Source of the DNA: a virus
Taxonomy: Duplodnaviria > Caudoviricetes
Direction: 5' to 3' (one strand)
Length of the DNA stretch: 64,000 bases
IMG/VR virus record: IMGVR_UViG_3300025858_000010
Span: 96,001 to 160,000 of that record
Shown here: one piece after another, positions 14,057 to 58,965 of the stretch
Position numbering within the stretch: the first letter of the stretch is position 1
Layout of the letters: every line of letters begins with the position of its first letter
Program-made: the position numbers and the translations under genes
The notes under the pieces: generated by a model
Database searches by the model: none
What the model was told of the DNA's origin: nothing
What the model saw: the letters and a program-made list of their open reading frames with translations, nothing else

Positions 14057-14935
14057 ATGTATATGAATAATCTAATGAATTTTGATGATTTTACTTTAAA
14101 TGAAAAGAATAAACCATCTGAAGGATTAACAAAAGAAAAAAAATCCGATATAGTTAAAAGAGCTAGGAGAGGCGAAGATATTGGTAAGAAAGGAAAAAAC
14201 TTTGAACAATTAAATAGATCGGATATTGATCCATACGGCGAGGAAGATTGGAACGATGATAATGATACACCGATAATACAGTTAGCTAAAGAACAAAATA
14301 AACCATTAGATCAAATAATGTCTTTATATTGTTATTATAATTCATTAACTAGTTTAGAAGGCATTGAACATTTAACTAATTTAGAAACATTAAATTGTTC
14401 TTATAATTCATTAACTAATTTAGAAGGCATTGAACATTTAACTAATTTAGAATTATTAGATTGTTCACGTAATCAATTAACTAATTTAGAAGGAATTGAA
14501 CATTTAACGAATTTAAGAGAATTATATTGTCATTCTAATCAATTAACTAATTTAGAAGGAATTGAACATTTAACGAATTTAGAGATATTATATTGTCATT
14601 CTAATCAATTAACTAGTTTGGAAGGAATTGAACATTTAACTAATTTAAGAGAATTATATTGTCATAATAATCAATTAACTAATTTAGATGGAATTGAACA
14701 TTTAACTAATTTAAGATATTTACATTGTTCGAATAATTCATTAACTAGTTTAGAAGGCATTGAACATTTAACGAATTTAGAATTATTAGATTGTTCACGT
14801 AATCAATTAACTAATTTAGATGGAATTGAACATTTAAAGAATTTACAATATTTATATTGTAATAATAATAGATTTACTGATGAATATAAAAATTATTTAA
14901 AATTAAAAACAAAAATAAAAAATATAATAATATGA
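14057..14935 (+). CDS. Leucine-rich repeat protein (9 x 22 aa) with leader and DPYGEEDW tag
   Basis: LTxLEGIEHLTNLxxLxCxxNx repeats; paralog of the four LRR genes at 50470-54275. Confidence 0.92.
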   Translation: MYMNNLMNFDDFTLNEKNKPSEGLTKEKKSDIVKRARRGEDIGKKGKNFEQLNRSDIDPYGEEDWNDDNDTPIIQLAKEQNKPLDQIMSLYCYYNSLTSLEGIEHLTNLETLNCSYNSLTNLEGIEHLTNLELLDCSRNQLTNLEGIEHLTNLRELYCHSNQLTNLEGIEHLTNLEILYCHSNQLTSLEGIEHLTNLRELYCHNNQLTNLDGIEHLTNLRYLHCSNNSLTSLEGIEHLTNLELLDCSRNQLTNLDGIEHLKNLQYLYCNNNRFTDEYKNYLKLKTKIKNIII

Positions 14936-27592: not shown

Positions 27593-27594
27593 TC

Positions 27595-43139: not shown

Positions 43140-44099
43140 TTATACGTCTATTTTTGTAAAACCACCGCTAGCACTATTTAAAATTATTCTTTTATGTCCA
43201 GGTATATAATTACCAGCATTACTACCGAGTCTTCCCGTGCTTGGTGTATAATAAGGAAGGGTGTCTAATGATGGATAATGTTCATATTCTCTTGGTTTCA
43301 ATACTATAGCCACTGAACTAGTAATAATTTTACCATTATCCATATATGATGAATCATGCATAACTTGTTTTACTTTATAAAACCAATTGTTTTGCATAGC
43401 GTGGTTAATATATAATTTTTTATCAGCGTCATCTATGGTATAAACTCTATCCATATAAATTCTATCAAGTGGTTTTCTTAATCCCCACCAAACTAGAGCT
43501 CTTCCTTTAATTTTTTCTTTTTCTTTATCACTCATTAATATTAAAAGTTTACATTTATCTGGATTATTTGTATAAATATCTAAGAATGGTTGAGATTTGA
43601 TAGCTTTCATACACGAATTATTTATATCACCTCGCGATGTGTTTTCATACCTATCTTCAAGATACCAATATCTTATTTCTTCACCATCAACTAGTTTAAA
43701 TTTAGAAAAAGACTTGTTAATTTCAGCTTTAAAATCATTTACGAATTGTTCTATTTCGGTTTGTTTAAATTTATCAGGAAATAATTTATTAATTATTTTT
43801 CCCACAGATATTTCTTGTCTCATTCTAGAATTCCAAGGTTCTGATGGCGAATCATCAATTAAATCTTGAGAAATTCTATTAGACGGTAAATAAGTTATTT
43901 TATCAATCTTATCTTTTTCTTCTGTATAATCTAGAAATGAAATATCGAATTTTTTTTCATTTACTGCCAATAAAATAGCGTCAGATATTGGAGATTTTAT
44001 TTTCGATAATAGTATTTTAAATTTAGAAGATATTACTAAAATATATTTTTTATCATCATCCGATTCAAATAAAAAACTATTATAGTTATATATGAACAT
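43140..44099 (-). CDS. SCM/RALxW/DRxY/YPxxDT-family protein, paralog 4 of 4
   Basis: NSCMK, GRALVW, MDRVY, YPSLDT; leader MFIYNYNSFLFE. Confidence 0.8.
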   Translation of the reverse strand: MFIYNYNSFLFESDDDKKYILVISSKFKILLSKIKSPISDAILLAVNEKKFDISFLDYTEEKDKIDKITYLPSNRISQDLIDDSPSEPWNSRMRQEISVGKIINKLFPDKFKQTEIEQFVNDFKAEINKSFSKFKLVDGEEIRYWYLEDRYENTSRGDINNSCMKAIKSQPFLDIYTNNPDKCKLLILMSDKEKEKIKGRALVWWGLRKPLDRIYMDRVYTIDDADKKLYINHAMQNNWFYKVKQVMHDSSYMDNGKIITSSVAIVLKPREYEHYPSLDTLPYYTPSTGRLGSNAGNYIPGHKRIILNSASGGFTKIDV

Positions 44100-44115
44100 T
44101 TATTATAAGTTTATT

Positions 44116-45171
44116 TTAATTGGATTCTCTTAACTTTTTAAATCCGCCGTTTGTTCTTTGTAATTGTAATCTTTCAAATACATTTCCAGTATTCGGATTT
44201 CTAGCAGGTTTACCTCTAGAATTAGCAATTCTTCCTGTTTCTGGTGTATAAAAACATAAAGTATCTATATATGGATAAGTTTTATAATATCCGTGATTAG
44301 GTAATCTGGTTGATATTGGTTTATTAATTTCAACACCGTTAAATATAAAAGTCAAACAATCTTTAACTTGATGTGTTTTATATGACCAACCATTTTTCTT
44401 AGCATAATCTATAAATATATTCACATCAGATTCATTTGTGTAATATATTCTATCCAATAAAGTTCCCTTAGTCGGTGATTCTGGTTTATCTACTACAAAA
44501 ACATTATACCATATTAAAGCCCTAGCCACAAGTTGTTCTTTTTTATTTAACATTATTAACATTTTAATATTGTCTGGATTTTTAACATAAATGTCAAAAA
44601 ATCCTTGTTTTTCTGGATGTTTTAAACAGGATTTCATTAATACCGATCTAGGATCTGGTCTACCATCTGGTGGTTTATCAATTATGCCCGGAGTGGGATT
44701 ATAATAAGTATCTACATGATAATATTTTCTAAGTTCTTCTCCATCGACAATTCTAAGTGTATAATTTTCAGAATCTAATTTGCTTTTAAATTCATGAACA
44801 AAATTTTCTAATTCTTTAGTTCCAGCATATTCCGGAAGAAGTCTCGTAGCAAAAGCACCGACTCTATTTATTTGTCTACCATATTTCCCCCAAACAACAC
44901 TATTAGGTTGAGGAACAATTAAATCGTCGTCTTTTACGCCTTCCATTCTATTTAATCTATTTACTGGCAATATACTTACAGTTTCTACATTATCTGCTAG
45001 ATCAACATAAGAAAAAGAATATTCAATGTTTTTTTTAAGTAATTCTAATAATTCTTTAGCAATAACTGATTGCATTGATTCCAAAACCTCAATAAGTTTA
45101 TCTGAAAAAAACATTCTGAGTTCTTTCACGTTAATTCTATCTTCAAATAAATAATCTTTATATTTTTTCAA
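44116..45171 (-). CDS. SCM/RALxW/DRxY/YPxxDT-family protein, paralog 3 of 4
   Basis: KSCLK, ARALIW, LDRIY, YPYIDT; leader MKKYKDYLFE. Confidence 0.8.
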   Translation of the reverse strand: MKKYKDYLFEDRINVKELRMFFSDKLIEVLESMQSVIAKELLELLKKNIEYSFSYVDLADNVETVSILPVNRLNRMEGVKDDDLIVPQPNSVVWGKYGRQINRVGAFATRLLPEYAGTKELENFVHEFKSKLDSENYTLRIVDGEELRKYYHVDTYYNPTPGIIDKPPDGRPDPRSVLMKSCLKHPEKQGFFDIYVKNPDNIKMLIMLNKKEQLVARALIWYNVFVVDKPESPTKGTLLDRIYYTNESDVNIFIDYAKKNGWSYKTHQVKDCLTFIFNGVEINKPISTRLPNHGYYKTYPYIDTLCFYTPETGRIANSRGKPARNPNTGNVFERLQLQRTNGGFKKLRESN

Positions 45172-45188
45172 ATCTAATTTAATTATTT

Positions 45189-46220
45189 TTAATCAATTCT
45201 TCCATATGAACCGTCACCTGATTCAAGTTTGATTCTTTTAAATCCTTCAACAGGATTTCCTTGATCACTGGCCAATCTTCCAGTACCTGGGTTATAAAAT
45301 TTTAAAGTGTCCATATATGGATATTTTTTATATTCCATTGCTGGTAATTGTAAAGAAACAGATTTTTGTATTCTTTGACCATTTTCAACATACGATGTAT
45401 CATGTGCACTTTGTTGATACTTATATAACCACCCTTGTTGAATCGCGTATTTTTTAAATAATTCTTCATCTGAAGGTTTATTAACATAAATTCTATCCAT
45501 AAAAGTCTTATCTGTGGGTTTTCTTAATCCAAACCATACTAATGCTCTACCAATCAATTTTTGATTGTAGTCTGTTAAAATAAGTAAACCACATTTATCT
45601 GGATTTTTACAATATAAATCGAAAAAACTTTGGCAATTATTATATCTCATACATGATTGATTTAAATTTCCTATCGGATTAGTACTATAATTTTTTTCAT
45701 GATACCAATTTCTAATATCTTCGCCTTTAACAACTCTAAAATTATTAAAAATAAATAAAGCTGAAATCTCTGCTCTAAAAGCGTTAACAAATTTTTCAAT
45801 AGCCATATCAGAAAAATTATCAAATAATTTATTCACTAGTTTTCCGGCTGCCAATGATTGTCTTCCACTACCTTTCCACATTGGACAATCTATATCTGGA
45901 TCTATATTTGCTTCTTCTTGATCTTTGAAATTCATAGATCTCCAAGCTCTTGATGCTGGCATAAAAGAAATAAAATCATTTTTACCTTCTTCCATATCAA
46001 AATAAGATATGTCGAAAAGTTCATTATCTGTTTTCGTAAGACCTATTATTCTATTAGCTACAGTTTTAACCTGAAAATCTCCTGTTTTTATCATATTGTT
46101 GAGTATGACAAGTAATCTAGGTGAAATAAAAATTTTTAATAATTTTTTTTCTTTGACAAATTTTTCAGGTTTGGCTTCATTAATTTCATTTAAAAAATTT
46201 TTATATGTCATTTTATTCAT
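45189..46220 (-). CDS. SCM/RALxW/DRxY/YPxxDT-family protein, paralog 2 of 4
   Basis: QSCMR, GRALVW, MDRIY, YPYMDT; leader MNKMTYKNFLNE. Confidence 0.8.
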   Translation of the reverse strand: MNKMTYKNFLNEINEAKPEKFVKEKKLLKIFISPRLLVILNNMIKTGDFQVKTVANRIIGLTKTDNELFDISYFDMEEGKNDFISFMPASRAWRSMNFKDQEEANIDPDIDCPMWKGSGRQSLAAGKLVNKLFDNFSDMAIEKFVNAFRAEISALFIFNNFRVVKGEDIRNWYHEKNYSTNPIGNLNQSCMRYNNCQSFFDLYCKNPDKCGLLILTDYNQKLIGRALVWFGLRKPTDKTFMDRIYVNKPSDEELFKKYAIQQGWLYKYQQSAHDTSYVENGQRIQKSVSLQLPAMEYKKYPYMDTLKFYNPGTGRLASDQGNPVEGFKRIKLESGDGSYGRID

Positions 46221-46237
46221 CTTTTATTATGTATTTT

Positions 46238-47233
46238 TTAATCAATTTTAGCATAACCACCATCTTGACTTCTCAAATTATATCTATGAAAAACTTTACT
46301 AGGATTACTCGGATCCCTGGCTGGATTACCAGCTGTTGAAGACGCTCTGCCAGTGGACGGTGTAAAATATTGCATTGTATCCATGTATGGATATTTACCA
46401 TAATCTATTGGTTTCAAACGTATCGTAACTGATGTTGTTTTTCGTTGACCGTCCATCATAAAAGCATCTCCTTCTTTATAAATCCATCCATTATCTATTG
46501 CATATTTTTTAAACATTGCTACTAATTGTGATTTACCTTCTACTACATATACTCTATCCATTAATGTATATGGTTCTTTATCTTCTTTTGTATCTCCACT
46601 CGGTTTAAATAATCCAGACCATACCAAAGCTCTTCCATAAGCTTTTTCACCAGTTTCATCTAAATAAATTAAAAGACCGCATTTTTCTGGATTTTCGCAA
46701 TAAATATTAAAAAATGGTTTACATTTATCATATCTCATACAAGATCCCATACGTCCGTTGTACATTTTTTCATTATACCATTTTCTAATATCTTCACCTT
46801 TAACTAATTCAAAATTGTTACCTTTTGATTTTTTCGCATCTATTTCTGGCCGATATCTATTATAGAATTCATCTATGTCCATGTTTGTAAATTTATCAGG
46901 AAATAATTTATTGATTATTTTTCCTATTAATGAACTTTGTCTTAATGTACTTGTCCATAAAGGACTATTTGGATCATAATTAATTAAATCAACATTTTCA
47001 ATTCTTTTTGCTCTGTCAGTAGTTAAGAATGAAATATTTTTGCTGTCTTCCTCATCAATATCTAACCAAGATATATTAGAAATAGGTTTTCGGTCGTTTG
47101 CAAGTAATTCTTTCGCTACCTTATTAGTACTTATTTTATTTAATATTTTAAAAAAGTTTAAGCTAAAAAATAATTTACTTGTTTCTTTTTTGTTATCAGC
47201 ATCTTCGTTTAAAAAATCATTAAAGTTTTTCAT
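46238..47233 (-). CDS. SCM/RALxW/DRxY/YPxxDT-family protein, paralog 1 of 4
   Basis: GSCMR, GRALVW, MDRVY, YPYMDT; leader MKNFNDFLNE. Confidence 0.8.
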   Translation of the reverse strand: MKNFNDFLNEDADNKKETSKLFFSLNFFKILNKISTNKVAKELLANDRKPISNISWLDIDEEDSKNISFLTTDRAKRIENVDLINYDPNSPLWTSTLRQSSLIGKIINKLFPDKFTNMDIDEFYNRYRPEIDAKKSKGNNFELVKGEDIRKWYNEKMYNGRMGSCMRYDKCKPFFNIYCENPEKCGLLIYLDETGEKAYGRALVWSGLFKPSGDTKEDKEPYTLMDRVYVVEGKSQLVAMFKKYAIDNGWIYKEGDAFMMDGQRKTTSVTIRLKPIDYGKYPYMDTMQYFTPSTGRASSTAGNPARDPSNPSKVFHRYNLRSQDGGYAKID

Positions 47234-47282
47234 ATAATTATTCTTAATTTTTCTTTATATATTAATATTTTTTTTCAAATTT

Positions 47283-48383
47283 TTAAATTTCATCATAATA
47301 AGAAACAAATTTAATATAAAATTCTTGAAAACCTAAATCTTCATATTTGTATGTTATTACTCTATAAGAAACACTATGTTGCCCTGATATTTGCCAAGGA
47401 CTCATAAAATTAATCACTTCATTTTCATATAAACCTGTTTCAACTAATCGAATATTAGAATTATTGTTTGTAATACCGGACCAATTTATTCCATCTATTC
47501 CAAAAGATACATTATAATCTTTATTATATGAATCTAAATAACCAAAGATTAAATAATTATTAGGTTCTACTAATTTTAAACTAAAAACCATGGTAGTTTC
47601 TCCGGTTATTTTTTCAATTAATTTGCCGTTATTCAATGAAGCATCTTTATAAAAATAATTTCCATTTTTAGCTTTGAAATAATCCGCGTTTTTTGATTCT
47701 GACTTCATTACCCACAAGAAAGGATAACACGCGTTTGCTATAGAAGAACCAGTTACACTGTAATAATCATCTATTCCACACCACTGAGTTGTTTTAAAAG
47801 TTAATATGTGGTTATCTGTGTTTTCTGATACTGGTAAATAGTTATAACTACCTATCATATAATCATTAGAATATCCGGTCCAAACAGATATAATACTAGA
47901 ATAATTATTGTAATATACTCTTAAATCGCCATAAGCGAAATTAATTTCATCATTTTTTATTGTTTGTCCACTAACCACTATGTAATAATTTACACCAATT
48001 TCAAAATTTTGCTGTGGATAATAATATGGTGTAATATAACTACATAAACTGAATGTTATTTGTGGTATATTAGTTATTCCGTTTGTAGTTCCTGATACGG
48101 ATTCTATCGAATATGATATACCTATAGGGTTTTCCGCATATGATCTAAAATAATAAATTGTATTGGATGTTAACCCAGTTACGATATCTTGAAAATTTCC
48201 AAGATCATCCATTTTACTTAAATTGACATCTAAATATTTACAATCGGATTGATTTTTTGTTGGGTATGTTACAGAAGAACTGTAAACAAATCCAATACTT
48301 GTTATATCCAGACTTCCAGAGTCTGTAACTTTTCCATTTACCTGCATTGAATTATTAGTTATCGGTGACGGTGGAGTTGCCAT
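47283..48383 (-). CDS. FN3-domain virion/structural protein
   Basis: IT..S..V.G.V.D.G...IT..GFVYS...PT...F...VTGL..NT.YYFRSYAEN..G.SY FN3-like unit. Confidence 0.7.
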   Translation of the reverse strand: MATPPSPITNNSMQVNGKVTDSGSLDITSIGFVYSSSVTYPTKNQSDCKYLDVNLSKMDDLGNFQDIVTGLTSNTIYYFRSYAENPIGISYSIESVSGTTNGITNIPQITFSLCSYITPYYYPQQNFEIGVNYYIVVSGQTIKNDEINFAYGDLRVYYNNYSSIISVWTGYSNDYMIGSYNYLPVSENTDNHILTFKTTQWCGIDDYYSVTGSSIANACYPFLWVMKSESKNADYFKAKNGNYFYKDASLNNGKLIEKITGETTMVFSLKLVEPNNYLIFGYLDSYNKDYNVSFGIDGINWSGITNNNSNIRLVETGLYENEVINFMSPWQISGQHSVSYRVITYKYEDLGFQEFYIKFVSYYDEI

Positions 48384-48391
48384 ATTTTTAA

Positions 48392-50470
48392 TTACATATT
48401 TTTTATACTTAAAATATCAACCATCGGTGATGATTTTGTTCTTATCGTTTTATCTTTACCATAAGATGTACTTATTGAATTTGTTGCATATGCTCTAATA
48501 TGATATGTTGTTCCCGTTATTAAATCTGTTAAATATCCGTTAAAATAAGATTGAAGATCTAAATAATGTGTATGTGAATTAGTAATGGTTGGATTTGGCG
48601 ACGTATTCCAACAAATACCCTCATCGATGATGGTGTCATTACCATTATCTATAACATGTCCAAAAGCTATAGCACTATCAAAACCTGTTAAGAACACATC
48701 ATCAGTACTTACTGTTGGCGATAACGACGGTTCTATTGGAGGTGTCATAATGTGTTCATTTTCTCCGATTACAGTTCCTTCTGAATCGGTAACATAAGCA
48801 ACATAATCATATAAGGTAGATGGTTCTAATGTCGTTATAGTATTAAAGAATGTGCCTATCGATGTTGTTCCATTTGATTCTGAACCGTAAGTTATATCTG
48901 GCGAAGTATGACCAGTATAGTAAAATCCACTGTCTAAAATAGTAATAGACTCGCCTGATGAATTTATCATTCCAAAAAATGTCGTACTATTTGATGTTGG
49001 TAACAATTGAGGGGGTAATGTAGTTGTCTGTAATTGTCCTGTTTCTCCTGTTGTTGTGAAGCTAAAAACATCACCGTATGTTATTCCGGTCAAATTTTCA
49101 GCGAACGCTCTGTAATAATATGTGGTTGTATTTAATAAATTTTTCATTGTAATGTTAATATCCCCGATTGTACCACCGTCTGTGATCGCAAAACTATTAC
49201 CATAAAAAGGATCAATAGTAATACCTGATGGAAACCAACATATACCTCTATTTATTATTTTTCCTCCTCCATCATTAATAACAACACCGTTACCAATCAT
49301 TTCATAATGTTTTGATGTTGTAGTTGCGGAATTCGTAATAACTACAGGAGGATTAAATATATTTGTCATCGACAGTGGAATAATGTCTCGATCATTAATG
49401 TTAGTTGATAAATGACCACTTTCTAAAATTCCATCAATCCACATACCTCCATAAAAATGTCCATTTTTAAAAACGCCGTTGATCCATAAACCATTATACC
49501 ACTGTCCGTTATTCCATACACATTTATAACTATATTCTGAACCTATAGTGTTTCCTAGTATTCCACCATACCAATTTCCATTGTGGAATATTCCACTTAT
49601 GAAGTGACCACCGTACCATAATCCATTATAGAAATTGCCACTAATCCAAATAGACTGATTATTGTAAATACTAGGTATAGTATTTCCACTCTCATCTATA
49701 TTTAATCCAGAATGAAATTCCGGTTGATTTAAAGGACTATATTTATCACTTGAAAAATCGCCATGATACCATATGCAAAAATTTCCAATTCCAAATCTAC
49801 TTTTAATATCATATTTTAATTGATTGAACTTACCATCAAACCATTTGCCATTTTTAAAATCCCCCCCAAACCATAATCCATCATACCATTCATAATCATC
49901 AAATACACCGTTATAAAATTTACCATATAACCAATAAGAATTTAACATCTCACCGTCGTAAAATACACCATCTAACCAAACAGAATTTTTAAAGGTACCA
50001 TTATGAAAGCTACCATAATTCCAATAAGCGGATGAAAAATTTTTGCTTTCTATGTCACTTACAGATTTATTAGAAACATCTCTGTCATAACCAAATATAC
50101 CGTCGTAAAAATCTCCATTTAACCATTCCCCTGATCTAAATTCTGAATATTTTTTATCTTTTTCCAAAATGACAAATCTTTGTGTTATTATCATTGATTC
50201 GTCTATTAAATAGGAATACCATCTACCATTTTTCCAAATACCATCATGCCATATTCCAGAATACCATGTTCCGTCTTCCCATTCACCACAAATCCATTCC
50301 CCAGAATACCATACAATACCATAATCATCTTGCCCTATGATACAATTTTTAACATTAGCGTTAAGCACCCAATTATATTTAACTTTTAACGTTTCAACAG
50401 TTAAATTGTCTGTTAAAATTATATTATCTGCGTTTCTACTAATGTTTACTATTTTAACTTCAAATGCCAT
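48392..50470 (-). CDS. Virion protein: (W/F)xxG pentapeptide-repeat region plus three FN3-like domains
   Basis: WYSGEWICGEWEDGTWYSGIWHDGIWKNGRW repeats; DGG..I..RGICW...T.YYYRAFAEN..G.TYG units. Confidence 0.75.
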   Translation of the reverse strand: MAFEVKIVNISRNADNIILTDNLTVETLKVKYNWVLNANVKNCIIGQDDYGIVWYSGEWICGEWEDGTWYSGIWHDGIWKNGRWYSYLIDESMIITQRFVILEKDKKYSEFRSGEWLNGDFYDGIFGYDRDVSNKSVSDIESKNFSSAYWNYGSFHNGTFKNSVWLDGVFYDGEMLNSYWLYGKFYNGVFDDYEWYDGLWFGGDFKNGKWFDGKFNQLKYDIKSRFGIGNFCIWYHGDFSSDKYSPLNQPEFHSGLNIDESGNTIPSIYNNQSIWISGNFYNGLWYGGHFISGIFHNGNWYGGILGNTIGSEYSYKCVWNNGQWYNGLWINGVFKNGHFYGGMWIDGILESGHLSTNINDRDIIPLSMTNIFNPPVVITNSATTTSKHYEMIGNGVVINDGGGKIINRGICWFPSGITIDPFYGNSFAITDGGTIGDINITMKNLLNTTTYYYRAFAENLTGITYGDVFSFTTTGETGQLQTTTLPPQLLPTSNSTTFFGMINSSGESITILDSGFYYTGHTSPDITYGSESNGTTSIGTFFNTITTLEPSTLYDYVAYVTDSEGTVIGENEHIMTPPIEPSLSPTVSTDDVFLTGFDSAIAFGHVIDNGNDTIIDEGICWNTSPNPTITNSHTHYLDLQSYFNGYLTDLITGTTYHIRAYATNSISTSYGKDKTIRTKSSPMVDILSIKNM

Positions 50471-51222
50471 TATATTTGTTTATGATTTATTTTTAATGTT
50501 TTTAAATAATTTTTATATTCATCAGTAAATCTATTATTATTACAATATAAATATTGTAAATTCTTTAAATGTTCAATTCCTTCTAAACTAGTTAATTGAT
50601 TATAAGAACAATCCAATTCTCTTAAATTAGTTAAATGTTCAATGCCTTCTAAACTAGTTAATTGATTAGAATGACAATATAATTCTCTTAAATTTGTTAA
50701 ATGTTCAATGCCTTCTAAACTAGTTAATAGATTAGTATTACAAAGTAATATTTTTAAATTCGTTAATTGTTCAATGCCTTCTAAACTAGTTAATTGATTA
50801 GAATGACAATATAATTCTCTTAAATTTGTTAAATGTTCAATGCCTTCTAAACTAGTTAATTGATTATTAGAACAATATAATGTTTTTAAATTCGTTAAAT
50901 GTTCAATTCCTTCTAAACTAGTTAATCTATTATTAGAACAATCTAATAATTCTAAATTCGTTAAATGTTCAATGCCTTCTAAACTAGTTAATTGATTATA
51001 AGAACAATCCAATTCTCTTAAATTCGTTAAATGTTCAATTCCTTCTAAACTAGTTAATGATTTATCAGAACAACTCAAATGTGTTATTTGATCTAATGGT
51101 TTATTTTGCTTTTTGGCCAACGTTATTATCGGTGTATCATTATCGTCATCCCAATCTTCTTCACCATATGGATCAATATCTGACATATTTAATTGTTCAA
51201 ATATTTTAAAATTCTTTATCAT
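50470..51222 (-). CDS. Leucine-rich repeat protein (9 repeats) with leader and DPYGEEDW tag
   Basis: MIKNFKIFEQLNMSDIDPYGEEDW followed by 22-aa LRRs. Confidence 0.92.
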   Translation of the reverse strand: MIKNFKIFEQLNMSDIDPYGEEDWDDDNDTPIITLAKKQNKPLDQITHLSCSDKSLTSLEGIEHLTNLRELDCSYNQLTSLEGIEHLTNLELLDCSNNRLTSLEGIEHLTNLKTLYCSNNQLTSLEGIEHLTNLRELYCHSNQLTSLEGIEQLTNLKILLCNTNLLTSLEGIEHLTNLRELYCHSNQLTSLEGIEHLTNLRELDCSYNQLTSLEGIEHLKNLQYLYCNNNRFTDEYKNYLKTLKINHKQI

Positions 51223-51223
51223 T

Positions 51224-51976
51224 TTATATTTTTAAGTCATTTATTTTTAGTGTTTTTAAATAAAATTTATACATAAAATTAAATTTATTATTAGAACAAT
51301 ATAATGTTTCTAAATTCGTTAAATGTTCAATTCCTTCTAAATTAGTTAATTGATTATTATAACAATATAATGATTTTAAATTCGTTAAATGTTCAATGCC
51401 TTCTAAATTAGTTAATCTATTATTATAACAAATTAATGTTTTTAAATTAGTCAAATGTTCAATACCTTCTAAACTAGTTAATTGATTATTAGAACAATGT
51501 AAATATCTTAAATTAGTTAAATGTTCAATTCCTTCTAAACTAGTTAATTGATTAGAATGACAATATAATTCTCTTAAATTCGTTAAATGTTCAATTCCTT
51601 CTAAACTAGTTAATTGATTATTAGAACAATGTAATAATTCTAAATTCGTTAAATGTTCAATTCCATCTAAACTAGTTAATCTATTATTATAACAAATTAA
51701 TTCCCTTAAATTTGTTAAATGTTCAATGCCATCTAAATTAGTTAATTGATTATAAGAACAATCCAATTCTCTTAAATTCGTTAAATGTTCAATTCCTTCT
51801 AAACTAGTTAAATTTTTATGAGAACAATTTAAAATCATTATTTGATCTAATGGTTTATTTTGTTTTTTGGCCAACGTTATTATCGGTGTATCATTATCGT
51901 CATCCCAATCTTCTTCACCATATGGATCAATATCTTGCCTACTTAATAGCTCAAATATTTTAAAATTCTTTATCAT
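51224..51976 (-). CDS. Leucine-rich repeat protein (9 repeats) with leader and DPYGEEDW tag
   Basis: MIKNFKIFELLSRQDIDPYGEEDW followed by 22-aa LRRs. Confidence 0.92.
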   Translation of the reverse strand: MIKNFKIFELLSRQDIDPYGEEDWDDDNDTPIITLAKKQNKPLDQIMILNCSHKNLTSLEGIEHLTNLRELDCSYNQLTNLDGIEHLTNLRELICYNNRLTSLDGIEHLTNLELLHCSNNQLTSLEGIEHLTNLRELYCHSNQLTSLEGIEHLTNLRYLHCSNNQLTSLEGIEHLTNLKTLICYNNRLTNLEGIEHLTNLKSLYCYNNQLTNLEGIEHLTNLETLYCSNNKFNFMYKFYLKTLKINDLKI

Positions 51977-51977
51977 T

Positions 51978-52532
51978 TTATATTACTATACGCGTTTTTA
52001 ATTTTGATTTTAAATAATTTTTATATTCTTGAGTAAATTTGTTATTATTACATTTTAATTTTCTTAAATTCTTTAAATTATCAATACCGTTTAAATTAGT
52101 TAATGAATTATTATTACAAAATAGTATTTCTAAATTCTTTAAATGTTCAATGCCTTCTAAACTAGTCAATTGATTATCGAAACAATATAATTCTCTCAAA
52201 TTAGTTAAATGTTCAATTCCTTTCATACTATTTAATCTATTATTATAACAAACTAATGTTTTTAAATTAGTTAAATGTTCAATACCTTCTAAACTAGTTA
52301 ATGAATTATTATAGCAATATAATTCAATTAAATTTGTTAATCTATCAATTCCTTCTAAACTAGTTAATTCATTATTATAACAATATAAACTCCTTATTTG
52401 ATCTAATGGTATATTTTGTTCTTTAGCTATAATTATTATTGGAGTATCATTATCATCGTTCCAATCTTCTTCATTATATGGATCAATATCTTGTCTACTT
52501 AATTGCTCAAATATTCTAAAATTCTTTATCAT
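51978..52532 (-). CDS. Leucine-rich repeat protein (6 repeats) with leader and DPYNEEDW tag
   Basis: MIKNFRIFEQLSRQDIDPYNEEDW followed by 22-aa LRRs. Confidence 0.92.
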   Translation of the reverse strand: MIKNFRIFEQLSRQDIDPYNEEDWNDDNDTPIIIIAKEQNIPLDQIRSLYCYNNELTSLEGIDRLTNLIELYCYNNSLTSLEGIEHLTNLKTLVCYNNRLNSMKGIEHLTNLRELYCFDNQLTSLEGIEHLKNLEILFCNNNSLTNLNGIDNLKNLRKLKCNNNKFTQEYKNYLKSKLKTRIVI

Positions 52533-52545
52533 CGCATTATTTTTT

Positions 52546-52782
52546 TTAAAACATATTCTTTAATTCGTCGAGCGCGTCAGCGGCTGAACTAATTTTATTA
52601 TAATATTCTATCGATATAACTCTATCATCGTCTTGAACGATAATTTTTGATATTTCATCCAAAAGAGGAGAAGTCATGTTTATTAATTTCTGTAATCTTT
52701 CTGTATCAATGGATGTTGATGGCTGAACAGATTCTGGTTCGAATTGTTCGAATTTTTTCATTCTATTTGTTACTTTTTTCAT
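52546..52782 (-). CDS. Small helical protein with leader-like MKKFEQFE
   Basis: 78-aa ORF downstream of a TATATA motif. Confidence 0.6.
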   Translation of the reverse strand: MKKVTNRMKKFEQFEPESVQPSTSIDTERLQKLINMTSPLLDEISKIIVQDDDRVISIEYYNKISSAADALDELKNMF

Positions 52783-52861
52783 CGATTTTTATTTTTTTTT
52801 TATCATTTTATTTATATATATTTTTTTATTTTCAATATTCGTAAAGAAATAATTTTTATAT

Positions 52862-53518
52862 TTAATATATTATTGTCCATCCCTTAGATAATAAACTATT
52901 CCTATCCAAATCTGAATATGATGTTGGAAGAGCATTACCAGTTGTGTCTATATTTCCATTATAAGATAAAAATGTATTAGCTGGAATGTATATATCATAA
53001 TCGACATCTAGTATACTATTACCGGAAACATTTATAGAATTTAATTCTATCAAACCGTTTATATCTATTGTACTTAAATAATTTTTTTTCAGACTCAATA
53101 TGTTCAATTTTTTAAGATTCCTTATTATAATAGATGTGACTCCTTGATTATTCATGACCAAACTATTTATTAAAGATACACCTCCACTTATATTAATTGT
53201 ATATATTCCATTATCATCATAATCATAATTAATAACATTTTCATTTTCTTCAATTATATTTATTTTTTGAGCTACTTTTCCATCACCCCAATCTGCAGAT
53301 AAAGTCATTGAATTTGAAGATACTATTGTGAAAGAAACAGATAATGAATTTTTTAATGTATTTATGACAAAGATGAGCGAATCTATTGGGATGTTATCGT
53401 CATCAACAGTTAAAGTAGATATTATGTTATCATTTAATATTGGTATAGGTAATTTAGTTAATTTATCAATTCCTATATCTATTAATTCGACTGGTTTTAA
53501 TGTTAAGCTAGTATCCAT
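52862..53518 (-). CDS. PKD-like plus short LRR-like protein
   Basis: ADWGDG...YDY...G.YTI.I PKD pattern; LKKLNILSLKKNYL LRR-like turns. Confidence 0.6.
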   Translation of the reverse strand: MDTSLTLKPVELIDIGIDKLTKLPIPILNDNIISTLTVDDDNIPIDSLIFVINTLKNSLSVSFTIVSSNSMTLSADWGDGKVAQKINIIEENENVINYDYDDNGIYTINISGGVSLINSLVMNNQGVTSIIIRNLKKLNILSLKKNYLSTIDINGLIELNSINVSGNSILDVDYDIYIPANTFLSYNGNIDTTGNALPTSYSDLDRNSLLSKGWTIIY

Positions 53519-53519
53519 T

Positions 53520-54275
53520 TTATATTTTTTTATTTTCGATATTTAATGGTTTTAAATACTTTTTATATTCGCTAGAAAATTTATTATTGAAACAATATAA
53601 TGTTTCTAAATTCGTTAAATGTTCAATTCCTTCTAAACTGGTTAATTCATTATTAGAACAATATAATTCTCTTAAATTCGTTAAATGTTCAATTCCATCT
53701 AAATTAGTTAATTGATTAGAATGACAATATAATTCTCTTAAATTCGTTAAATGTTCAATTCCTTCTAAATTAGTTAATGAATTATAAGAACAATTTAATG
53801 TTTCTAAATTAGTTAAATGTTCAATTCCTTCTAAATTAGTTAATTGATTAGAATGACAATATAATTCTCTTAAATTCGTTAAATGTTCAATGCCTTCTAA
53901 TCTAGTTAATGAATTATTATTACAATATAAATATTGTAAATTCTTTAAATGTTCAATTCCATCTAAATTAGTTAATTGATTATTATAACAATATAATGAT
54001 TTTAAATTCGTTAAATGTTCAATGCCTTCTAAATTAGTTAATCTATTATCAGAACAATTTAATATTCTTAATTTCGTTAAATGTTCAATTCCTTCTAAAC
54101 TAGTTAATGATTTATCAGAACAACTCAAATGTGTTATTTGATCTAATGGTTTATTTTGCTTTTTGGCCAACGTTATTATCGGTGTATCATTATCGTCGTT
54201 CCAATCTTCCTCGCCATATGGATCAATGTCTTGTCTACTTAATTGTTCAAATATTTTAAAATTCATTAAATTCAT
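53520..54275 (-). CDS. Leucine-rich repeat protein (9 repeats) with leader and DPYGEEDW tag
   Basis: MNLMNFKIFEQLSRQDIDPYGEEDW followed by 22-aa LRRs. Confidence 0.92.
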   Translation of the reverse strand: MNLMNFKIFEQLSRQDIDPYGEEDWNDDNDTPIITLAKKQNKPLDQITHLSCSDKSLTSLEGIEHLTKLRILNCSDNRLTNLEGIEHLTNLKSLYCYNNQLTNLDGIEHLKNLQYLYCNNNSLTRLEGIEHLTNLRELYCHSNQLTNLEGIEHLTNLETLNCSYNSLTNLEGIEHLTNLRELYCHSNQLTNLDGIEHLTNLRELYCSNNELTSLEGIEHLTNLETLYCFNNKFSSEYKKYLKPLNIENKKI

Positions 54276-54292: not shown

Positions 54293-56125
54293 TTATACTG
54301 GCGGAGCTTCTATAATAATGATATTTAAAATTCCATAACCGACAACATAACTATTTTTAGCATATCCCCTAACATAATAAATTCCGGAGGATAATCCAGT
54401 TTCTGTAATACTATAATTTAGTGGTAATTTATATGGTGGTGATTTATGATATACTACACAAGTATCTCCAGTGGTCGGAGATCCGGTATTATTATAACAC
54501 CATCCAACTTCAGTACACAGAGTTCCCCCATCGCTTACTAGTTGACACGAATATGTTATACTATCAGATGTGGTACTATATTTTAAAGTATCAACAACAG
54601 GCGGAATTGGAGCTAATGTCATAGTATGTCCTGTTGTTCCTGTTCCAGTATAACCATCTATATTAGTAGCAAAAGCTCTATATGAATATTCTTGTAGTGG
54701 AGTTAAACCAGTAAGTGTACAATAATATGATCCAACTTTACCGTTTTCATTTGTATAAATAACAGTGTCAGTGAATGTGTCTGTAATTCCTTCGGCATAT
54801 TCTATACCTCTATAATCTATTTCCGTATAACCACTCGGTGATCCCGACTTATAACCTGTTGAAATAACTCTACCTAGAATTGACATAGAATAAGATGATA
54901 TATTTTGACTTCCTATTGTTTCTACAACTGGTGGGGAGTCTGATTTATCTTTTGTAATAAAAGTATCAACAGTACCATATGATATTCCATTTTTATTTAT
55001 AGCATATACTTTATAATAATAATTTGTAAGATAAATTAGATTAACTATACTAGTAGAAAATGTTCCGGGTTGACCATTCGGTACAGTATCAGCTATTTGT
55101 TTTATATTTGGATTAATTGTACTTCCCCAATATATTCCCCATTCTGTTATATTATTTCCTCCATTATCGGTCACTGTTCCTTTTACTATAGCGTAATCCA
55201 TGCCAACATTTTCAGTCGGTGTAGATGATGTAAAAACTATCGGTGGTCTTCCGATTCCGCCATTGGCTAAATTCTCAGGATCATATATTTTCAAAACAAA
55301 TTTATTATCATAGTCTTGCATTAAGATAGCTGTTGTATAATTTTTTATATTTATATCGCCACTTATAATTTCAGCATAAGAATTGCATATACTTCTACGT
55401 CTATTATCATCTCTGACTCTATAATAGTCACTTTCTTCATTTATATAAACATCATATAAAATATCAGAAATATCTTTTAATCCATATATTGTGCTTATAC
55501 TATTAAACGTCATTTCACTTGTCGAATAAATCTTCAAAGTGACTCCTGTGATATCTGAAGTAGCATTCGTTGATAATGTGATAGAATCATCTCCTATAGA
55601 ATTTATAGTTGTGTCACTTGGAATTCCGTCTGCTGAGACTATCATTCCTAATACAATTTCTTCTGTTGAACTAACATTTAAAATAACATTAGATCCATTT
55701 GTTAAATCGCCAGTTGGCGGTTTTGTCGGTTTATGTGTCTCAATGACTATATATTCATTCGGAACCAAATCCACTATTAAAGTCTTACGTATAATACTGT
55801 AAAATATAAAATCCCCCTCAGACAACGGATCTGGGTAAGAACCCGATAATTTAAGATTAACAAATGTGTTTTTTCTGAAATATTGAGTTAAATCTGTAGT
55901 TAATTTTATTAATGTACCCCTAGAGTCTTCTTTTGTTGTTGGATATATATTTGGATTTGGTCTTTGATCATAATAGGTTATATCCGTAGTATCTCCACTT
56001 GTTATAGTATTATCTAATAAAAAAGAATATCCGCTAAATATATCTTTATTAATTGATATTAGATGATCATATAGTTTATATTTTATATAATAATTAGAAG
56101 TAGTAAATTTGTTGTATTGCATCAA
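54293..56125 (-). CDS. Virion protein with three C-terminal FN3-like domains
   Basis: DNGGNNITEWGIYWG...YYYKVYAIN..G.SYG units; GMIVSADGIPSDTTI beta domain. Confidence 0.7.
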   Translation of the reverse strand: MMQYNKFTTSNYYIKYKLYDHLISINKDIFSGYSFLLDNTITSGDTTDITYYDQRPNPNIYPTTKEDSRGTLIKLTTDLTQYFRKNTFVNLKLSGSYPDPLSEGDFIFYSIIRKTLIVDLVPNEYIVIETHKPTKPPTGDLTNGSNVILNVSSTEEIVLGMIVSADGIPSDTTINSIGDDSITLSTNATSDITGVTLKIYSTSEMTFNSISTIYGLKDISDILYDVYINEESDYYRVRDDNRRRSICNSYAEIISGDINIKNYTTAILMQDYDNKFVLKIYDPENLANGGIGRPPIVFTSSTPTENVGMDYAIVKGTVTDNGGNNITEWGIYWGSTINPNIKQIADTVPNGQPGTFSTSIVNLIYLTNYYYKVYAINKNGISYGTVDTFITKDKSDSPPVVETIGSQNISSYSMSILGRVISTGYKSGSPSGYTEIDYRGIEYAEGITDTFTDTVIYTNENGKVGSYYCTLTGLTPLQEYSYRAFATNIDGYTGTGTTGHTMTLAPIPPVVDTLKYSTTSDSITYSCQLVSDGGTLCTEVGWCYNNTGSPTTGDTCVVYHKSPPYKLPLNYSITETGLSSGIYYVRGYAKNSYVVGYGILNIIIIEAPPV

Positions 56126-57533: not shown

Positions 57534-58646
57534 ATGATATTAAATATTAAAAGTTTAACCGATTTGTCTGGTTTTTATGTTGTTTTTAACAGAACAATAA
57601 TTAATGAAAAAGATAAAATATATGGAATATCTCATTTAATCGAACATTTAATAGGTCATAATTTCGACGATGATATAATAGAGAATTTTCAGAACGACGG
57701 AATAACATGGAATGCTTATACATCACCAACAAATATAGTTTTTTATATGATTGGACTTGATAAATATTTAATAAAATATAAGGATTTATTTTTAGATAAA
57801 TTGTTGTACATAGATATAAATGATGATGATTTTATTATTGAAAAAAAATCGTTACTCGAAGAATATACTAGTTTATTTAACATACAAAACTCATCGCATG
57901 TTTTAAATTTATACAGAAAATTATTTGGTTCTTATAATACTATAGGTAAAAAAGAAGACATAATTGGTATAACTAAAAAAGATTGTTATGATTATAGATT
58001 GGAAAATTATAAATATCCTTCAAAAATAATAAATGTATCTAAAAATTCTATTTTCGATACTGATATGAAATTAAATGATTTAGAAAATGATTATCACGTT
58101 GATTTTAAAAATGATACCGGAATTACATATGAAAAACATTTCACATTAAATAAATCTTCTATAATATATATGTCTCCTATAATTCGCGATAATTGGGATT
58201 CCGTATTTTTTATAAATTATATTTTATCAAATGGTATTGGTTCAGTTTTGTATAAAAATATAAGAAAGAAAAATGGTTTGGCTTATTATATAAAATGTAA
58301 TATAGATAGAATGAGCGACTTTTCAGGAATTAATGTAATATCAATTGAAACCGAAGACAATAATGTGCCTTATTTGATTGACAATTTAGATAAAACTTTA
58401 AAAAATAAATTATTCCTCACTAAAGAAAAATTCGAAAATGTTAAAAATTCAATAATAAATAAAATTGATACAATATCCATCAATAGATATAACAATATAG
58501 ATTGTTATATAAAACCAGAAAAATGGTCAATTGAAAAACAAATACATAGAATAACACTTGATGATATTATAGAAACATATGATAAATACTTTAATGTTGA
58601 TTATTTTATTAAAAGCGTGGATAAAGAAGATTTTAGAAAAAAATGA
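57534..58646 (+). CDS. M16-family (insulinase-like) zinc peptidase
   Basis: GISHLIEH (HxxEH), WNAYTS, EK..L.EE, L...IRKKNGLAY. Confidence 0.88.
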   Translation: MILNIKSLTDLSGFYVVFNRTIINEKDKIYGISHLIEHLIGHNFDDDIIENFQNDGITWNAYTSPTNIVFYMIGLDKYLIKYKDLFLDKLLYIDINDDDFIIEKKSLLEEYTSLFNIQNSSHVLNLYRKLFGSYNTIGKKEDIIGITKKDCYDYRLENYKYPSKIINVSKNSIFDTDMKLNDLENDYHVDFKNDTGITYEKHFTLNKSSIIYMSPIIRDNWDSVFFINYILSNGIGSVLYKNIRKKNGLAYYIKCNIDRMSDFSGINVISIETEDNNVPYLIDNLDKTLKNKLFLTKEKFENVKNSIINKIDTISINRYNNIDCYIKPEKWSIEKQIHRITLDDIIETYDKYFNVDYFIKSVDKEDFRKK

Positions 58647-58747
58647 ATAAAAAATAATAATATATAAGATTAATAATAATATATTTTTTTCACTTAAATC
58701 GTAGGCTTCTGATTTTTTCTAAAGTATTTTAAAAATGAATTAAAATA

Positions 58748-58903: not shown

Positions 58904-58965
58904 AAAATTTTTTTATTCCAACACGAATGATTAATTTTGCATTGTTTATTAAAAATCATTTATAA

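Follow-up and report, generated by a model that had tools for sequence, protein, structure and literature searches.

Why does a phage carry a group of LRR genes in which the same variable segments recur in different orders, and what process built them? The genes lie in a 64,000-nucleotide stretch (the window; positions 96,001 to 160,000 of IMG/VR record IMGVR_UViG_3300025858_000010) of a huge uncultured phage of the Mahaphage clade, related to a 735-kb Mahaphage. The original prediction counted a family of five, diversified in a VLR-like manner; five are inside the window, but the 243-kb record, which is incomplete and has its own end inside an LRR gene, holds at least 12. They constitute a lineage-specific, heritable multigene family of small, cytoplasmically made LRR proteins. 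The evidence as a whole is probably best explained by such a heritable family, shuffled via homologous recombination and selected for new binding faces, and nothing in this phage points to antibody-like programmed diversification.

The genes of the window and their neighbours are as follows:

14057..14935, plus strand: LRR gene w14057, 292 aa by ORF translation (Pfam LRR_4, E = 7.6e-65)
48392..50470, minus strand: 692-aa gene, conserved, flanking the LRR cluster on its downstream side; has W/G-rich repeats and FN3-like domains
50470..51222, minus strand: LRR gene w50470, 250 aa, 8 units
51224..51976, minus strand: LRR gene w51224, 250 aa, 8 units
51978..52532, minus strand: LRR gene w51978, 184 aa, 5 units, every cassette type a singleton
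52546..52782, minus strand: 78-aa ORF with a leader-like start, part of the same lineage-specific insertion as three downstream LRR genes
52862..53518, minus strand: conserved 218-aa gene of the ancestral late-gene block, not a member of the LRR family
53520..54275, minus strand: LRR gene w53520, 251 aa, 8 units, placed between the conserved genes at 54293 and 52862
54293..56125, minus strand: 610-aa gene, conserved, flanking the LRR cluster on its upstream side; has FN3-like domains

Apart from w14057, the window LRR genes have been inserted into a late gene train that is tightly packed and ends at the portal gene. In relatives, including the 735-kb phage LR756501, the flanking genes are adjacent and the LRR genes absent; w53520 is missing from the relatives' syntenic block. 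In relatives and in the 735-kb phage, the 692-aa homolog has a homolog of the 218-aa gene (39-42% identity) immediately upstream, and no ORF separates the two in relatives; the LRR_8 match of this gene is weak (Pfam E = 8.7e-4, below the cut-off). The 78-aa ORF is found in all close assemblies. The remaining LRR gene, w14057, adjoins replication genes, outside the late gene train.

Parsing of 12 family genes gave 84 units of 66 bp (22 residues), a period confirmed by Tandem Repeats Finder. Each gene opens with a disordered leader followed by the DPYGEExW tag and an N-cap; 4-10 of the 22-residue units and a C-cap complete it, and Pfam LRR_4 matches range from E = 6e-34 to 8e-65. In w14057, the order is its own CTS-like start, spacer, tag, N-cap, 8 units and C-cap. 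The parts of w50470 are as follows:

51148..51222, minus strand: leader (MIKNFKIFE...) and DPYGEEDW tag, residues 1-25, predicted to be disordered
50557..51084, minus strand: eight 66-bp units, each a 27-nt variable segment plus a 39-nt constant spacer
50470..50556, minus strand: C-cap, with a truncated last unit, helix 234-242 and terminal strand 247-249 in the model

The AlphaFold model of w50470 (pLDDT 91.6; <50 for residues 1-25) has one β-strand per unit, at unit positions 2-4. What had been described as a C-terminal tag is the structural C-cap (helix 234-242 and the final strand of the model), and the portable tag is the DPYGEExW near the N-terminus. The best Foldseek matches are SDS22, InlA and the InlJ "cysteine ladder," with VLR structure 2o6q also among the fold matches, and the nearest solved sequences are Leptospira LIC10831, InlA and SDS22. 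The proteins belong to the SDS22/internalin class of LRR, and their cysteine ladder is InlJ-like, with an invariant Cys found in 84/84 units.

Each 22-residue unit combines a near-invariant scaffold with six hypervariable positions, which, as anticipated for a binding face, map on or beside the concave β-strand. These positions carry an excess of amino-acid-changing differences, with a pN/pS, taken between paralogous units rather than orthologs, of 2.13 at variable codons versus 0.21 at scaffold codons. The higher pS of the leader (0.41) relative to the repeats (0.21-0.23) is what homogenisation of the repeats would produce. Swapping of units between copies thereby varies the predicted binding face.

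The 84 units contain just 50 different variable 9-mers, and the 32-nt constant-spacer pattern has 34 matches in the window versus 0 expected. The translated ORFs bear out the recurrences listed in the original prediction. Four window genes together hold 6 copies of RELYCHSNQ (8 copies in 6 genes for the record as a whole), ETLNCSYNS forms unit 2 in w14057 and unit 6 in w53520, KSLYCYNNQ forms unit 8 in w51224 and unit 3 in w53520, and the RELD-type unit is present twice in w50470 and once in w51224. The KNL-QYLYCNNN junction is terminal in w14057 and w50470 and internal in w53520, where unit 4 is a C-cap-like unit in internal position. As also proposed, w50470 shares its first unit with w53520 (a 125-nt exact tract) and has the C-cap type of w14057; by DNA, its nearest C-cap is that of g51667. 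Exact tracts of 446, 386 and 125 nt are each significant at P ≤ 5e-5. The 386-nt tract equates units 3.26-9.15 of w51224 with the paralog g58375, 89 kb away in the record (run-length permutation), and w50470 holds an internal 93-nt two-unit duplication.

A tree of individual units had been suggested as a check, and in it units cluster by cassette type, not by gene. For 46 of the 84, the nearest DNA neighbour is in another gene and at another position, same-gene nearest neighbours number 6.6 versus 6.5 expected, and the gene label takes 65 changes on the maximum-likelihood tree versus 63.9 when shuffled. Leader, repeat block and C-cap each have different nearest relatives. The LRR genes are mosaics in which the same variable segments recur across genes and positions.

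Convergence, through a small number of structurally allowed 9-mers and without exchange, forms one half of an improbable alternative, the other half being short-read assemblers that walk through the 66-bp repeats. Codon bias favors it to the extent that it inflates DNA identity: the strong AT bias makes identical peptides identical in DNA in 72/74 pairs, so that DNA identity adds little beyond the peptide statistics. Those statistics nevertheless oppose convergence, since column shuffling yields 0.8 ± 0.9 identical 9-mer pairs (maximum, 6) against 74 observed. In addition, same-type pairs agree in 100% of cases at a TTA/TTG synonymous site of the variable segment, other pairs in 71%, and this linkage supports descent rather than convergence. 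The excess is gone by nt 42-45; within ~15-40 nt of the variable segment, synonymous sites cease to be linked to cassette type.

Other assemblies bear on the second half of that alternative and supply variant alleles. The intervals concerned are the following:

51681..51863, minus strand: 183-bp conversion patch in w51224, reference versus ERZ795026 NODE_92
50531..50949, minus strand: replaced part of w50470, a different 206-aa LRR gene being present there in ERZ27257423
14476..14556, plus strand: 81-nt tract identical to 53698-53778 on the minus strand, crossover interval of P0004
53962..54049, minus strand: 88-nt tract identical to 51336-51423, crossover interval of P0014

Contigs of many assemblies, the reference record included, end within LRR genes, as would be expected if assemblers failed there. 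Reference alleles are, however, reproduced exactly in ERZ795026 and JGI 3300009692, 3300009694 and 3300025867, by different assemblers and from different samples (w14057 in ERZ795026 and 3300009692, w51978 in ERZ795026, and w53520 as exact copies in three JGI assemblies). This argues against the mosaic being an assembly chimera.

The search for other cassette orders yielded variant LRR alleles in ERZ795026 and ERZ27257423. Between the reference and ERZ795026 NODE_92, 21/21 differences over 11,361 nt fall inside the conversion patch. The variant w51224 allele is an exact four-piece mosaic of paralog sequences (the w51224 leader, 135 nt equal to w50470, 90 nt equal to g51667 U7-U9, and the remainder of w51224), which as an artefact would require three in-frame switches. 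In ERZ27257423, the other LRR gene stands beside an 8.1-kb flank (42392-50530) identical to the reference and includes cassette types missing from the reference; it is therefore not a mis-join of reference sequence. Across samples, near-clonal genomes diverge inside LRR genes only, one of them through exact copies of paralog tracts, and the identity of alleles in most samples indicates that turnover is not extremely fast.

Two further genes are junction chimeras: P0004 (ERZ27257449) joins the N-part of w14057 to the C-part of w53520 within the 81-nt identical tract, and P0014 (ERZ27257423) joins the N-part of w53520 to the C-part of w51224 within the 88-nt tract. Both come from MEGAHIT assemblies, variants being known at the assembly level, and in the P0004 sample a second contig begins exactly at the shared tract, indicating a graph branch there. 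Assembler errors at repeats could account for these chimeras and, in principle, for the variant alleles too, although the final k of 141 exceeds the length of the crossover tracts (81-88 nt).

The mosaic probably arose by ordinary homologous recombination, i.e., ectopic gene conversion, unequal crossing-over and exchange between co-infecting genomes. Recombination would be seeded in the 39-nt constant spacers, variable segments would be carried between copies, and selection would then retain new binding faces. The proposal that exchange through constant spacers generates new combinations was upheld by clustering by cassette type, decay of synonymous linkage and the four-piece allele. No RecA/UvsX-type recombinase was detected in the incomplete record. 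In a programmed, VLR-like process, a dedicated enzyme would instead assemble or rewrite the genes from cassette donors at each infection, with a repertoire differing per virion or burst. Mosaic genes built from a shared cassette vocabulary and near-clonal genomes differing within LRR genes only would suit it, yet it is very improbable: 12/12 genes are intact ORFs from start to stop, caps included, constant-spacer matches are absent outside genes (hence no silent donor bank), no reverse transcriptase was found, and the exchanges observed require just 80-135 nt homology tracts. Further, the same alleles occur base for base in at least four independent samples and so are not rewritten at each infection. 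The VLR-like mechanism originally envisaged does not hold for genes that are complete and heritable.

The predicted function of the proteins draws on the leader and the head module. The leader motif is at the N-terminus of 36/270 genes (2.3 expected) and is common to many unrelated small proteins of the phage; DPYGEExW occurs in 38 ORFs of the record, also at the extreme C-terminus of many unrelated proteins. The head genes present encode a gp23-like capsid protein, a gp20-like portal and a gp21-like protease (Pfam match to the T4 protease family below the cut-off, E = 0.0016). In the T4 capsid-targeting sequence (CTS), residues 4 and 7 serve targeting and residues 8 and 10 processing (PMC9026906), and the CTS is the sole shared part of the T4 internal proteins, which are diverse anti-restriction proteins (PMC3012670); in the LRR leaders of this phage, I-x-E is one residue earlier than in T4-like spacing. 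By analogy, the CTS-like leader and T4-type head module make capsid loading and injection of the LRR proteins plausible. The leader would act like a T4 CTS and bring the LRR proteins into the prohead, a T4-type prohead protease would trim them, and after delivery with the DNA they would bind variable host proteins. We rate this complete sequence of steps as quite possible, slightly short of an even chance.

Alternatively, the acidic DPYGEExW might dock LRR modules outside the particle (fibres, baseplate or head decoration) as interchangeable host- or matrix-binding adhesins. The FN3-like domains of the flanking genes are typical of exposed virion proteins, the cluster is within the late gene train, and diversifying selection equally fits receptor binding; the chimallivirus Goslar has a tail-associated fibre cloud to which carbohydrate-binding and LRR domains are anchored by an N-terminal module that they share (PMC13742148). 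We consider surface display unlikely, given modelled small monomer-type LRRs that lack a trimerisation or fibre domain, a capsid-targeting-type leader common to unrelated small proteins, a tag also found at unrelated C-termini and a docking site without structural support. It is likewise doubtful that these are non-virion late cytoplasmic proteins, i.e., host-takeover or assembly chaperone-like binders within the infected cell only, whose leader and tag serve another purpose. No signal peptide was found on the family LRR proteins, and the position of w14057 beside replication genes would agree with this role, but it offers no ready explanation for an extreme N-terminal leader of T4-like spacing alongside a T4-type head module, and co-transcription with head genes is late for takeover functions.

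The recombining, possibly injected family resembles several known systems in part. Listeria internalins (especially InlJ, PDB 3bz5) and SDS22/PPP1R7 are of the same LRR class, with a period of ~22 residues (LxxLxxLxLxxNxIxxIxxLxx), N- and C-caps and a concave β-sheet as the binding face; InlJ also has Cys in place of one core leucine in every unit. Unlike internalins, the phage proteins lack a signal peptide, an Ig-like inter-repeat domain and a cell-wall anchor, and compared to internalins and SDS22 they have a disordered leader and acidic tag, far more uniform units and at least 12 recombining members. The VLRs of lamprey and hagfish share the LRR scaffold, diversity on the concave face and a common module vocabulary but are completed somatically, an incomplete germline gene being filled from banks of silent cassettes, whereas the phage genes are all complete, have no silent cassettes and are inherited unchanged across samples. 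T4 IPI/IPII/IPIII and Alt have a similar short N-terminal leader, with aromatics three apart and then I/L-x-E, and are likewise diverse, fast-evolving cargo of a phage with gp20-, gp21- and gp23-type head genes. The candidate cargo here consists of repeat proteins of one family, which carry an acidic tag in addition and have a leader shifted by one residue relative to the T4 CTS. The best viral structural matches (BFVD) are the LRR multigene families of giant eukaryotic viruses (Klosneuvirus and entomopoxvirus), which also comprise many small paralogs but have eukaryotic hosts, lack a CTS-like leader or acidic tag and are not phage proteins. Xanthomonas TAL effectors consist of near-identical tandem units with few specificity residues, reshuffled between paralogs, and are delivered into the host cell; they differ in fold, DNA target and delivery by bacterial type III secretion. 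T-even gp38 is a tail-fibre adhesin with glycine-rich motifs, a single-copy locus and a known receptor-binding role, in which, as Tetart, Desplats and Krisch reportedly described in 1998 (J Mol Biol), hypervariable binding segments lie between conserved motifs that serve as recombination sites swapping specificity among phages. The constant spacers of the phage LRR genes follow the same logic as crossover points.

The five LRR genes of the window (w14057, w50470, w51224, w51978, and w53520, named by their lower coordinates) belong to a family spread over the 243,112-bp, low-G+C (~25%) record. A whole-record search found seven further full members, 12 in total, and far more divergent LRR ORFs are also present near the record's left end.

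Full members of the LRR family in the record
Window 14057-14935, plus strand, w14057
Window 50470-51222, minus strand, w50470
Window 51224-51976, minus strand, w51224
Window 51978-52532, minus strand, w51978
Window 53520-54275, minus strand, w53520
Record 1-750, LRR family member from the whole-record search
Record 51667-52551, LRR family member from the whole-record search
Record 57753-58373, LRR family member from the whole-record search
Record 58375-59070, LRR family member from the whole-record search
Record 83613-84302, LRR family member from the whole-record search
Record 170058-171503, LRR family member from the whole-record search
Record 231731-232288, LRR family member from the whole-record search

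The four minus-strand window genes are co-oriented within 50470-54275 and have 184 to 251 codons. All 12 genes are uninterrupted ORFs with caps, each consisting of a leader of ~46 residues, 4 to 10 repeat units, and a C-terminal cap. Parsed in register, they yield 84 full units of 22 residues (66 bp), in which a 27-nt variable segment (a 9-mer, which defines the cassette type) is joined to a 39-nt constant spacer. Tandem Repeats Finder detected 66-bp arrays in each of the five window genes, and Pfam LRR_4 matched them with E values of 7.7e-49, 8.6e-61, 6.4e-34, 2.6e-50, and 7.6e-65, all far above the cut-off. The original prediction that named 9-mer peptides recur in different genes and positions was correct in every peptide statement. 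Despite its completeness estimate of 100%, the record is a fragment that broke at a repeat, since both of its ends fall within ORFs (1-750 and 242500-243112), the left one within an LRR gene; further paralogs probably exist beyond it.

The unit pattern, LxxLxxLxCxxNxLxxLxGIxx, is that of the SDS22/internalin class, whose consensus is LxxLxxLxLxxNxIxxIxxLxx. In a per-position table of the 84 units, L3, C5, N8, L10, L13, I16, L19, and L22 vary hardly or not at all (cysteine occupies position 5 in 84 of 84), and positions 1, 2, 4, 6, 7, and 9 are highly variable. The AlphaFold model of the w50470 protein (pLDDT, 91.6) has nine regularly spaced strands (each unit contributes a short one, at its positions 2 to 4), an N-cap helix (residues 31 to 37), a C-cap helix (residues 234 to 242), and a terminal strand; residues 1 to 25 are disordered. 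The C-terminal "tag" noted earlier from the sequence is actually the LRR C-cap, which forms the helix and terminal strand of this model. Among solved proteins, Leptospira LIC10831, internalin A, and SDS22 are closest by sequence, and SDS22 (Foldseek E = 2.8e-13), InlA, and the cysteine-ladder internalin InlJ (3bz5) are closest by fold. The LRR proteins that match best in structure among viruses come from giant eukaryotic viruses rather than phages. Profile, period, and fold all place the phage proteins in the LRR superfamily, SDS22-like/internalin class. As in InlJ, every unit carries a core-position cysteine, but the InlJ repeat has a period of 21 residues, whereas the phage unit has 22. Given the unit pattern and the modelled strand placement, the variable positions are the classical concave-face x positions of LxxLxLxxN.

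Variable segments are shared between units far beyond chance. The 84 units contain only 50 distinct 9-mers and form 74 identical pairs, compared with 0.8 ± 0.9 (maximum, 6) after independent column shuffling of the variable positions. For 46 of the 84 units, the nearest DNA neighbor lies in another gene at another position. Same-gene nearest neighbors are as frequent as by chance (6.6 versus 6.5); same-position neighbors are enriched (23.3 versus 9.6), an excess due mostly to first units and collinear duplicates. Whether the 66-bp repeats cluster by cassette type rather than by gene or position was tested on a maximum-likelihood tree of the 84 units: the gene label requires 65 changes, no better than shuffled labels (mean, 63.9), and position requires 51 (shuffled, 59.4). 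Each 9-mer type is monophyletic, but there is some circularity in this, as the shape of the tree is dominated by the variable segment itself. When each cassette type is given a letter, example genes read HBF.ANAB,.B.FAEJG, H.G.ALAC,.LMA.A.M, and.CFAEJG. Several of these orders are noncollinear, e.g., G precedes A in one gene and follows it in others.

Identical 9-mer peptides are also identical in DNA in 72 of the 74 pairs. DNA identity of common cassettes was nevertheless rejected as independent proof of descent, as the strong AT codon bias makes it nearly automatic, and the case for cassette descent relied instead on the column-shuffle test and a linked synonymous site: a TTA/TTG site within the variable segment agrees in 100% of same-type pairs versus 71% of others. 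Beyond the variable segment, excess sharing has disappeared within 15 to 18 nt on the downstream side, and only part of it remains ~7 nt upstream, so that exchange tracts are often short and end within the constant spacers.

Mosaicism is also evident at the level of whole genes. Exact tracts link two paralogs outside the window (446 nt), w51224 and a paralog 89 kb away, shifted by one unit (386 nt), and w50470 and w53520 (125 nt), each with a P value of ≤5e-5 by permutation of differences, and w50470 contains a 93-nt internal duplication. The nearest relatives of the leader, repeats, and C-cap differ within one gene. Synonymous divergence is 0.41 in the leaders, about twice that in the repeat units (0.21 to 0.23, compared across all positions), as expected if conversion homogenizes the repeats. 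At the six variable codons, nonsynonymous divergence is 2.13 times the synonymous value; at scaffold codons the ratio is 0.21.

The phage was found in >20 public assemblies, in which alleles were compared at the five window loci among the 12. Exact copies were found of w14057 (ERZ795026 and JGI 3300009692), w53520 (JGI 3300025867, 3300009692, and 3300009694), w51978 (ERZ795026), and w50470 (ERZ795026 and JGI 3300009692). Identical alleles were thus recovered from at least four independent samples, and a few variant alleles exist. An assembly chimera as the source of the mosaic is contradicted by this exact reproduction in ERZ795026 and three JGI assemblies: the reference LRR genes are not assembly chimeras.

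Over 11,361 nt, the only differences between ERZ795026 NODE_92 and the reference are 21 sites at 51681-51863 in w51224, and this variant allele is an exact mosaic of four pieces: its own leader (113 nt), a piece identical to w50470 (135 nt), a piece identical to a paralog outside the window (90 nt), and its own sequence again (415 nt). In ERZ27257423, 42392-50530 (8.1 kb) is identical to the reference and the adjoining LRR gene differs; it has 206 codons with four cassette types absent from the reference, and the gene upstream of it resembles the paralog at the record's left end. Variation is confined to the LRR genes in the compared assembly stretches. In most samples the alleles are unchanged.

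A homolog search found two chimeric proteins. One (ERZ27257449) joins the N-terminal part of w14057 to the C-terminal part of w53520 and is followed by the genes downstream of w53520; as the two genes are in inverted orientation, a 39-kb inversion between them would produce such a junction. In the second (ERZ27257423), the N-terminal part of w53520 is joined to the C-terminal part of w51224. The crossovers fall in tracts of 81 nt (14476-14556 and 53698-53778) and 88 nt (53962-54049 and 51336-51423) identical between the parents. Each chimera is present on two contigs, the source being MEGAHIT assemblies, and in one sample a second contig begins exactly at the common tract; the two chimeras may be real recombinants or assembler paths. 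None of the five window proteins had an exact match in the protein collection, and of their close forms only these two chimeras emerged from the homolog search, which seems to exclude near-identical records. Past a chimeric LRR gene, ERZ27257423 contig k141_526347 (L042:10464-20426) continues for 10 kb without reference counterpart at the same G+C content, with genes for an endonuclease VII and a Fib_succ_major-domain protein. This stretch may belong to the genome but be missing from its assembly, be specific to the strain, or result from an intergenome misjoin at the LRR gene.

We propose that the family probably diversifies by ordinary homologous recombination, both among its paralogs, whether dispersed or in tandem, and between coinfecting genomes, with exchange seeded in the 39-nt constant spacers and selection for new concave faces. 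The original prediction of recombination through the spacers gains support from the mosaic genes, the exact paralog-derived pieces, and the exchange tracts that end in spacers. Neither an RVT_1 match nor a RecA-family phage recombinase was found in the record, which covers only a fragment of the genome.

By portal protein, the closest relative is the 735-kb phage LR756501 (89% identity), the largest genome of the Mahaphage clade (PMC7162821), whose members of >634 kb are predicted to infect Bacteroidetes (PMC7162821). The LRR cluster lies inside a tightly packed 20-kb minus-strand gene train, from 57439 to the portal gene at 37304, with gaps of 1 to 17 nt around the LRR genes. Homologs of the conserved genes at 54293, 52862, and 48392 are directly adjacent, with no intervening LRR gene, in the 735-kb phage as well as in a dozen relatives of greater distance; the clustered LRR genes and a 78-codon ORF at 52546 are therefore lineage-specific insertions. 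Megablast of the locus gave no close relatives among GenBank phages, and flanking proteins retrieved only relatives of 39 to 55% identity from IMG/VR and JGI contigs, all without LRR genes at the locus; these were used for synteny rather than cassette order. Many other contigs of large phages carry genes of the same architecture (leader, tag, N-cap, cysteine-ladder units, and C-cap), often more than one to a contig. In an unrelated phage lineage (L034:5986-8861 and L035:5986-7815; IMG/VR contigs of ~93 kb and 35% G+C), two to four tandem LRR genes encode 20-residue LPX/YopM-like units with a core-position cysteine, a common N terminus, and varying unit number. With a different LRR type there, tandem LRR families arose more than once in phages.

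Other genes of the window were recorded in passing, and a tRNA scan found no tRNA genes in it. At 15688-19927, a 505-codon family B DNA polymerase gene with an exonuclease domain and a weak polymerase-domain match only is directly followed by a homing-endonuclease-like gene of 589 codons (phrog_3339, E = 9e-126), with a 303-codon gene that has a class II tRNA synthetase match next in line; the polymerase may be split, its remainder not having been located. Immediately upstream of the gene for the major capsid protein (29543-31300) are two further large homing-endonuclease-like genes (25561-29388). They have 657 and 597 codons, and the C-terminal part of the 657-codon gene is Mom-like. The ORF at 63685-63999, which runs off the right edge (L042:1-591), is the end of a 941-residue PAS/HisKA/HATPase_c/receiver protein, a phage-encoded hybrid sensor kinase. 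Host-like genes, annotated from precomputed Pfam hits on identical contigs, encode a Glu/Gln-tRNA synthetase (tRNA-synt_1c; 7199-8800), an M16 peptidase (57534-58646), and translation initiation factor IF3 (59580-60086).

The disordered N terminus of the LRR proteins bears two portable elements, an acidic tag and a leader resembling the capsid-targeting sequence (CTS) of T4. The tag, DPYGEExW, is carried by 38 of the record's ORFs, with 46 copies that are all in frame; 12 of these ORFs are the LRR genes, and in the non-LRR ORFs it is often at the extreme C terminus. One 673-codon modular protein (record 77009-79030) contains it six times, and window copies besides those of LRR genes include 1434-1991, 6857-7198, and 61155-61355. 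The leader motif, defined as two aromatics three apart and then I/L-x-E, or the LRR gene variant, within the first 18 residues, is present in 36 of 270 genes versus 2.3 expected from internal windows. It is found in 11 of the 12 LRR genes; w14057 begins with a related F-x-x-F-x-L-x-E that the pattern does not match. The T4 CTS has ten residues, with residues 4 and 7 for targeting and 8 and 10 for processing (PMC9026906). The LRR leader of this phage has I-F-E at residues 7 to 9, and LRR homologs of other phages also begin with the leader, spaced exactly as in T4 but displaced by one residue. The stretch at 43140-48383, next to the LRR cluster on its downstream side, encodes five tandem paralogs of 319 to 366 codons, a family kept in all relatives examined, and four of the five begin with a T4 CTS-like aromatic-x-x-aromatic-L-x-E at residues 4 to 10 or nearby. 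A T4-type head module lies in the same window, with genes for a gp20-like portal (phrog_213, 3.4e-70), a gp21-like prohead protease (phrog_207 head maturation protease, 1.5e-26; Pfam Peptidase_S77 matched only at E = 0.0016, below the cut-off), and a gp23-like capsid protein (phrog_138 and Pfam Gp23, 8.8e-27).

Given the leader's resemblance to the T4 CTS and the T4-type head genes, the most attractive reading is that the LRR proteins would be loaded into the capsid, trimmed, and ejected into the host, to which we give slightly under an even chance. The main alternatives are that they are purely intracellular late proteins or adhesins docked outside the particle, the latter with a precedent in the proposal for LRR-bearing fiber proteins of phage Goslar (PMC13742148). 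A broader and unlikely extension of capsid loading is that Mahaphage-clade huge phages might keep a heritable, fast-recombining library of LRR binders, ejected with the DNA, each neutralizing or hijacking a different variable host protein (e.g., defense nucleases).

Recombination-diversified LRR families have been described from bacteria, eukaryotes, and giant eukaryotic viruses. No published example was found in phages, full-text literature searches yielding incidental mentions only, and the paper that established the Mahaphage clade (PMC7162821) never uses the word "leucine" in its main text. The present family is a useful case for four reasons. First, its cassette vocabulary is small and clean. 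Second, its scaffold is almost invariant. Third, public near-clonal genomes already reveal individual conversion events. Fourth, the two portable peptides suggest a delivery route. If packaged and injected, the proteins would constitute a natural combinatorial binder library against host proteins and a way to study how huge phages deal with the variety of host defenses; even if they are not packaged, the LRR genes are documented as hot spots at which the genomes of huge phages rearrange and their assemblies break.

The original comparison of the family with the variable lymphocyte receptors (VLRs) of lampreys and hagfish holds as an analogy of outcome but not as a system, and programmed diversification, whether VLR type or DGR type, is not supported. 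The germline VLR gene is incomplete without its LRR modules, whereas all 12 phage genes are complete. VLRs draw on banks of silent donor cassettes; in the whole record, all 83 constant-spacer matches (≤6 mismatches) lie inside the 12 genes (34 of 34 inside genes for the window) and none outside. Alleles are stable across samples, and their identity in independent samples argues for inheritance. DGRs combine a reverse transcriptase with a template repeat, whereas the phage record, incomplete as it is, has no RVT_1 match, and its variation proceeds by whole-segment replacement rather than adenine-specific substitution. The internal proteins of T4 are a varied group of antirestriction proteins with only the CTS in common (PMC3012670). 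If the reading as a capsid-loaded binder library is true, the LRR family would carry out the internal-protein strategy of T4 in combinatorial form, with repeat proteins, and would represent a new class of counterdefense in phages.
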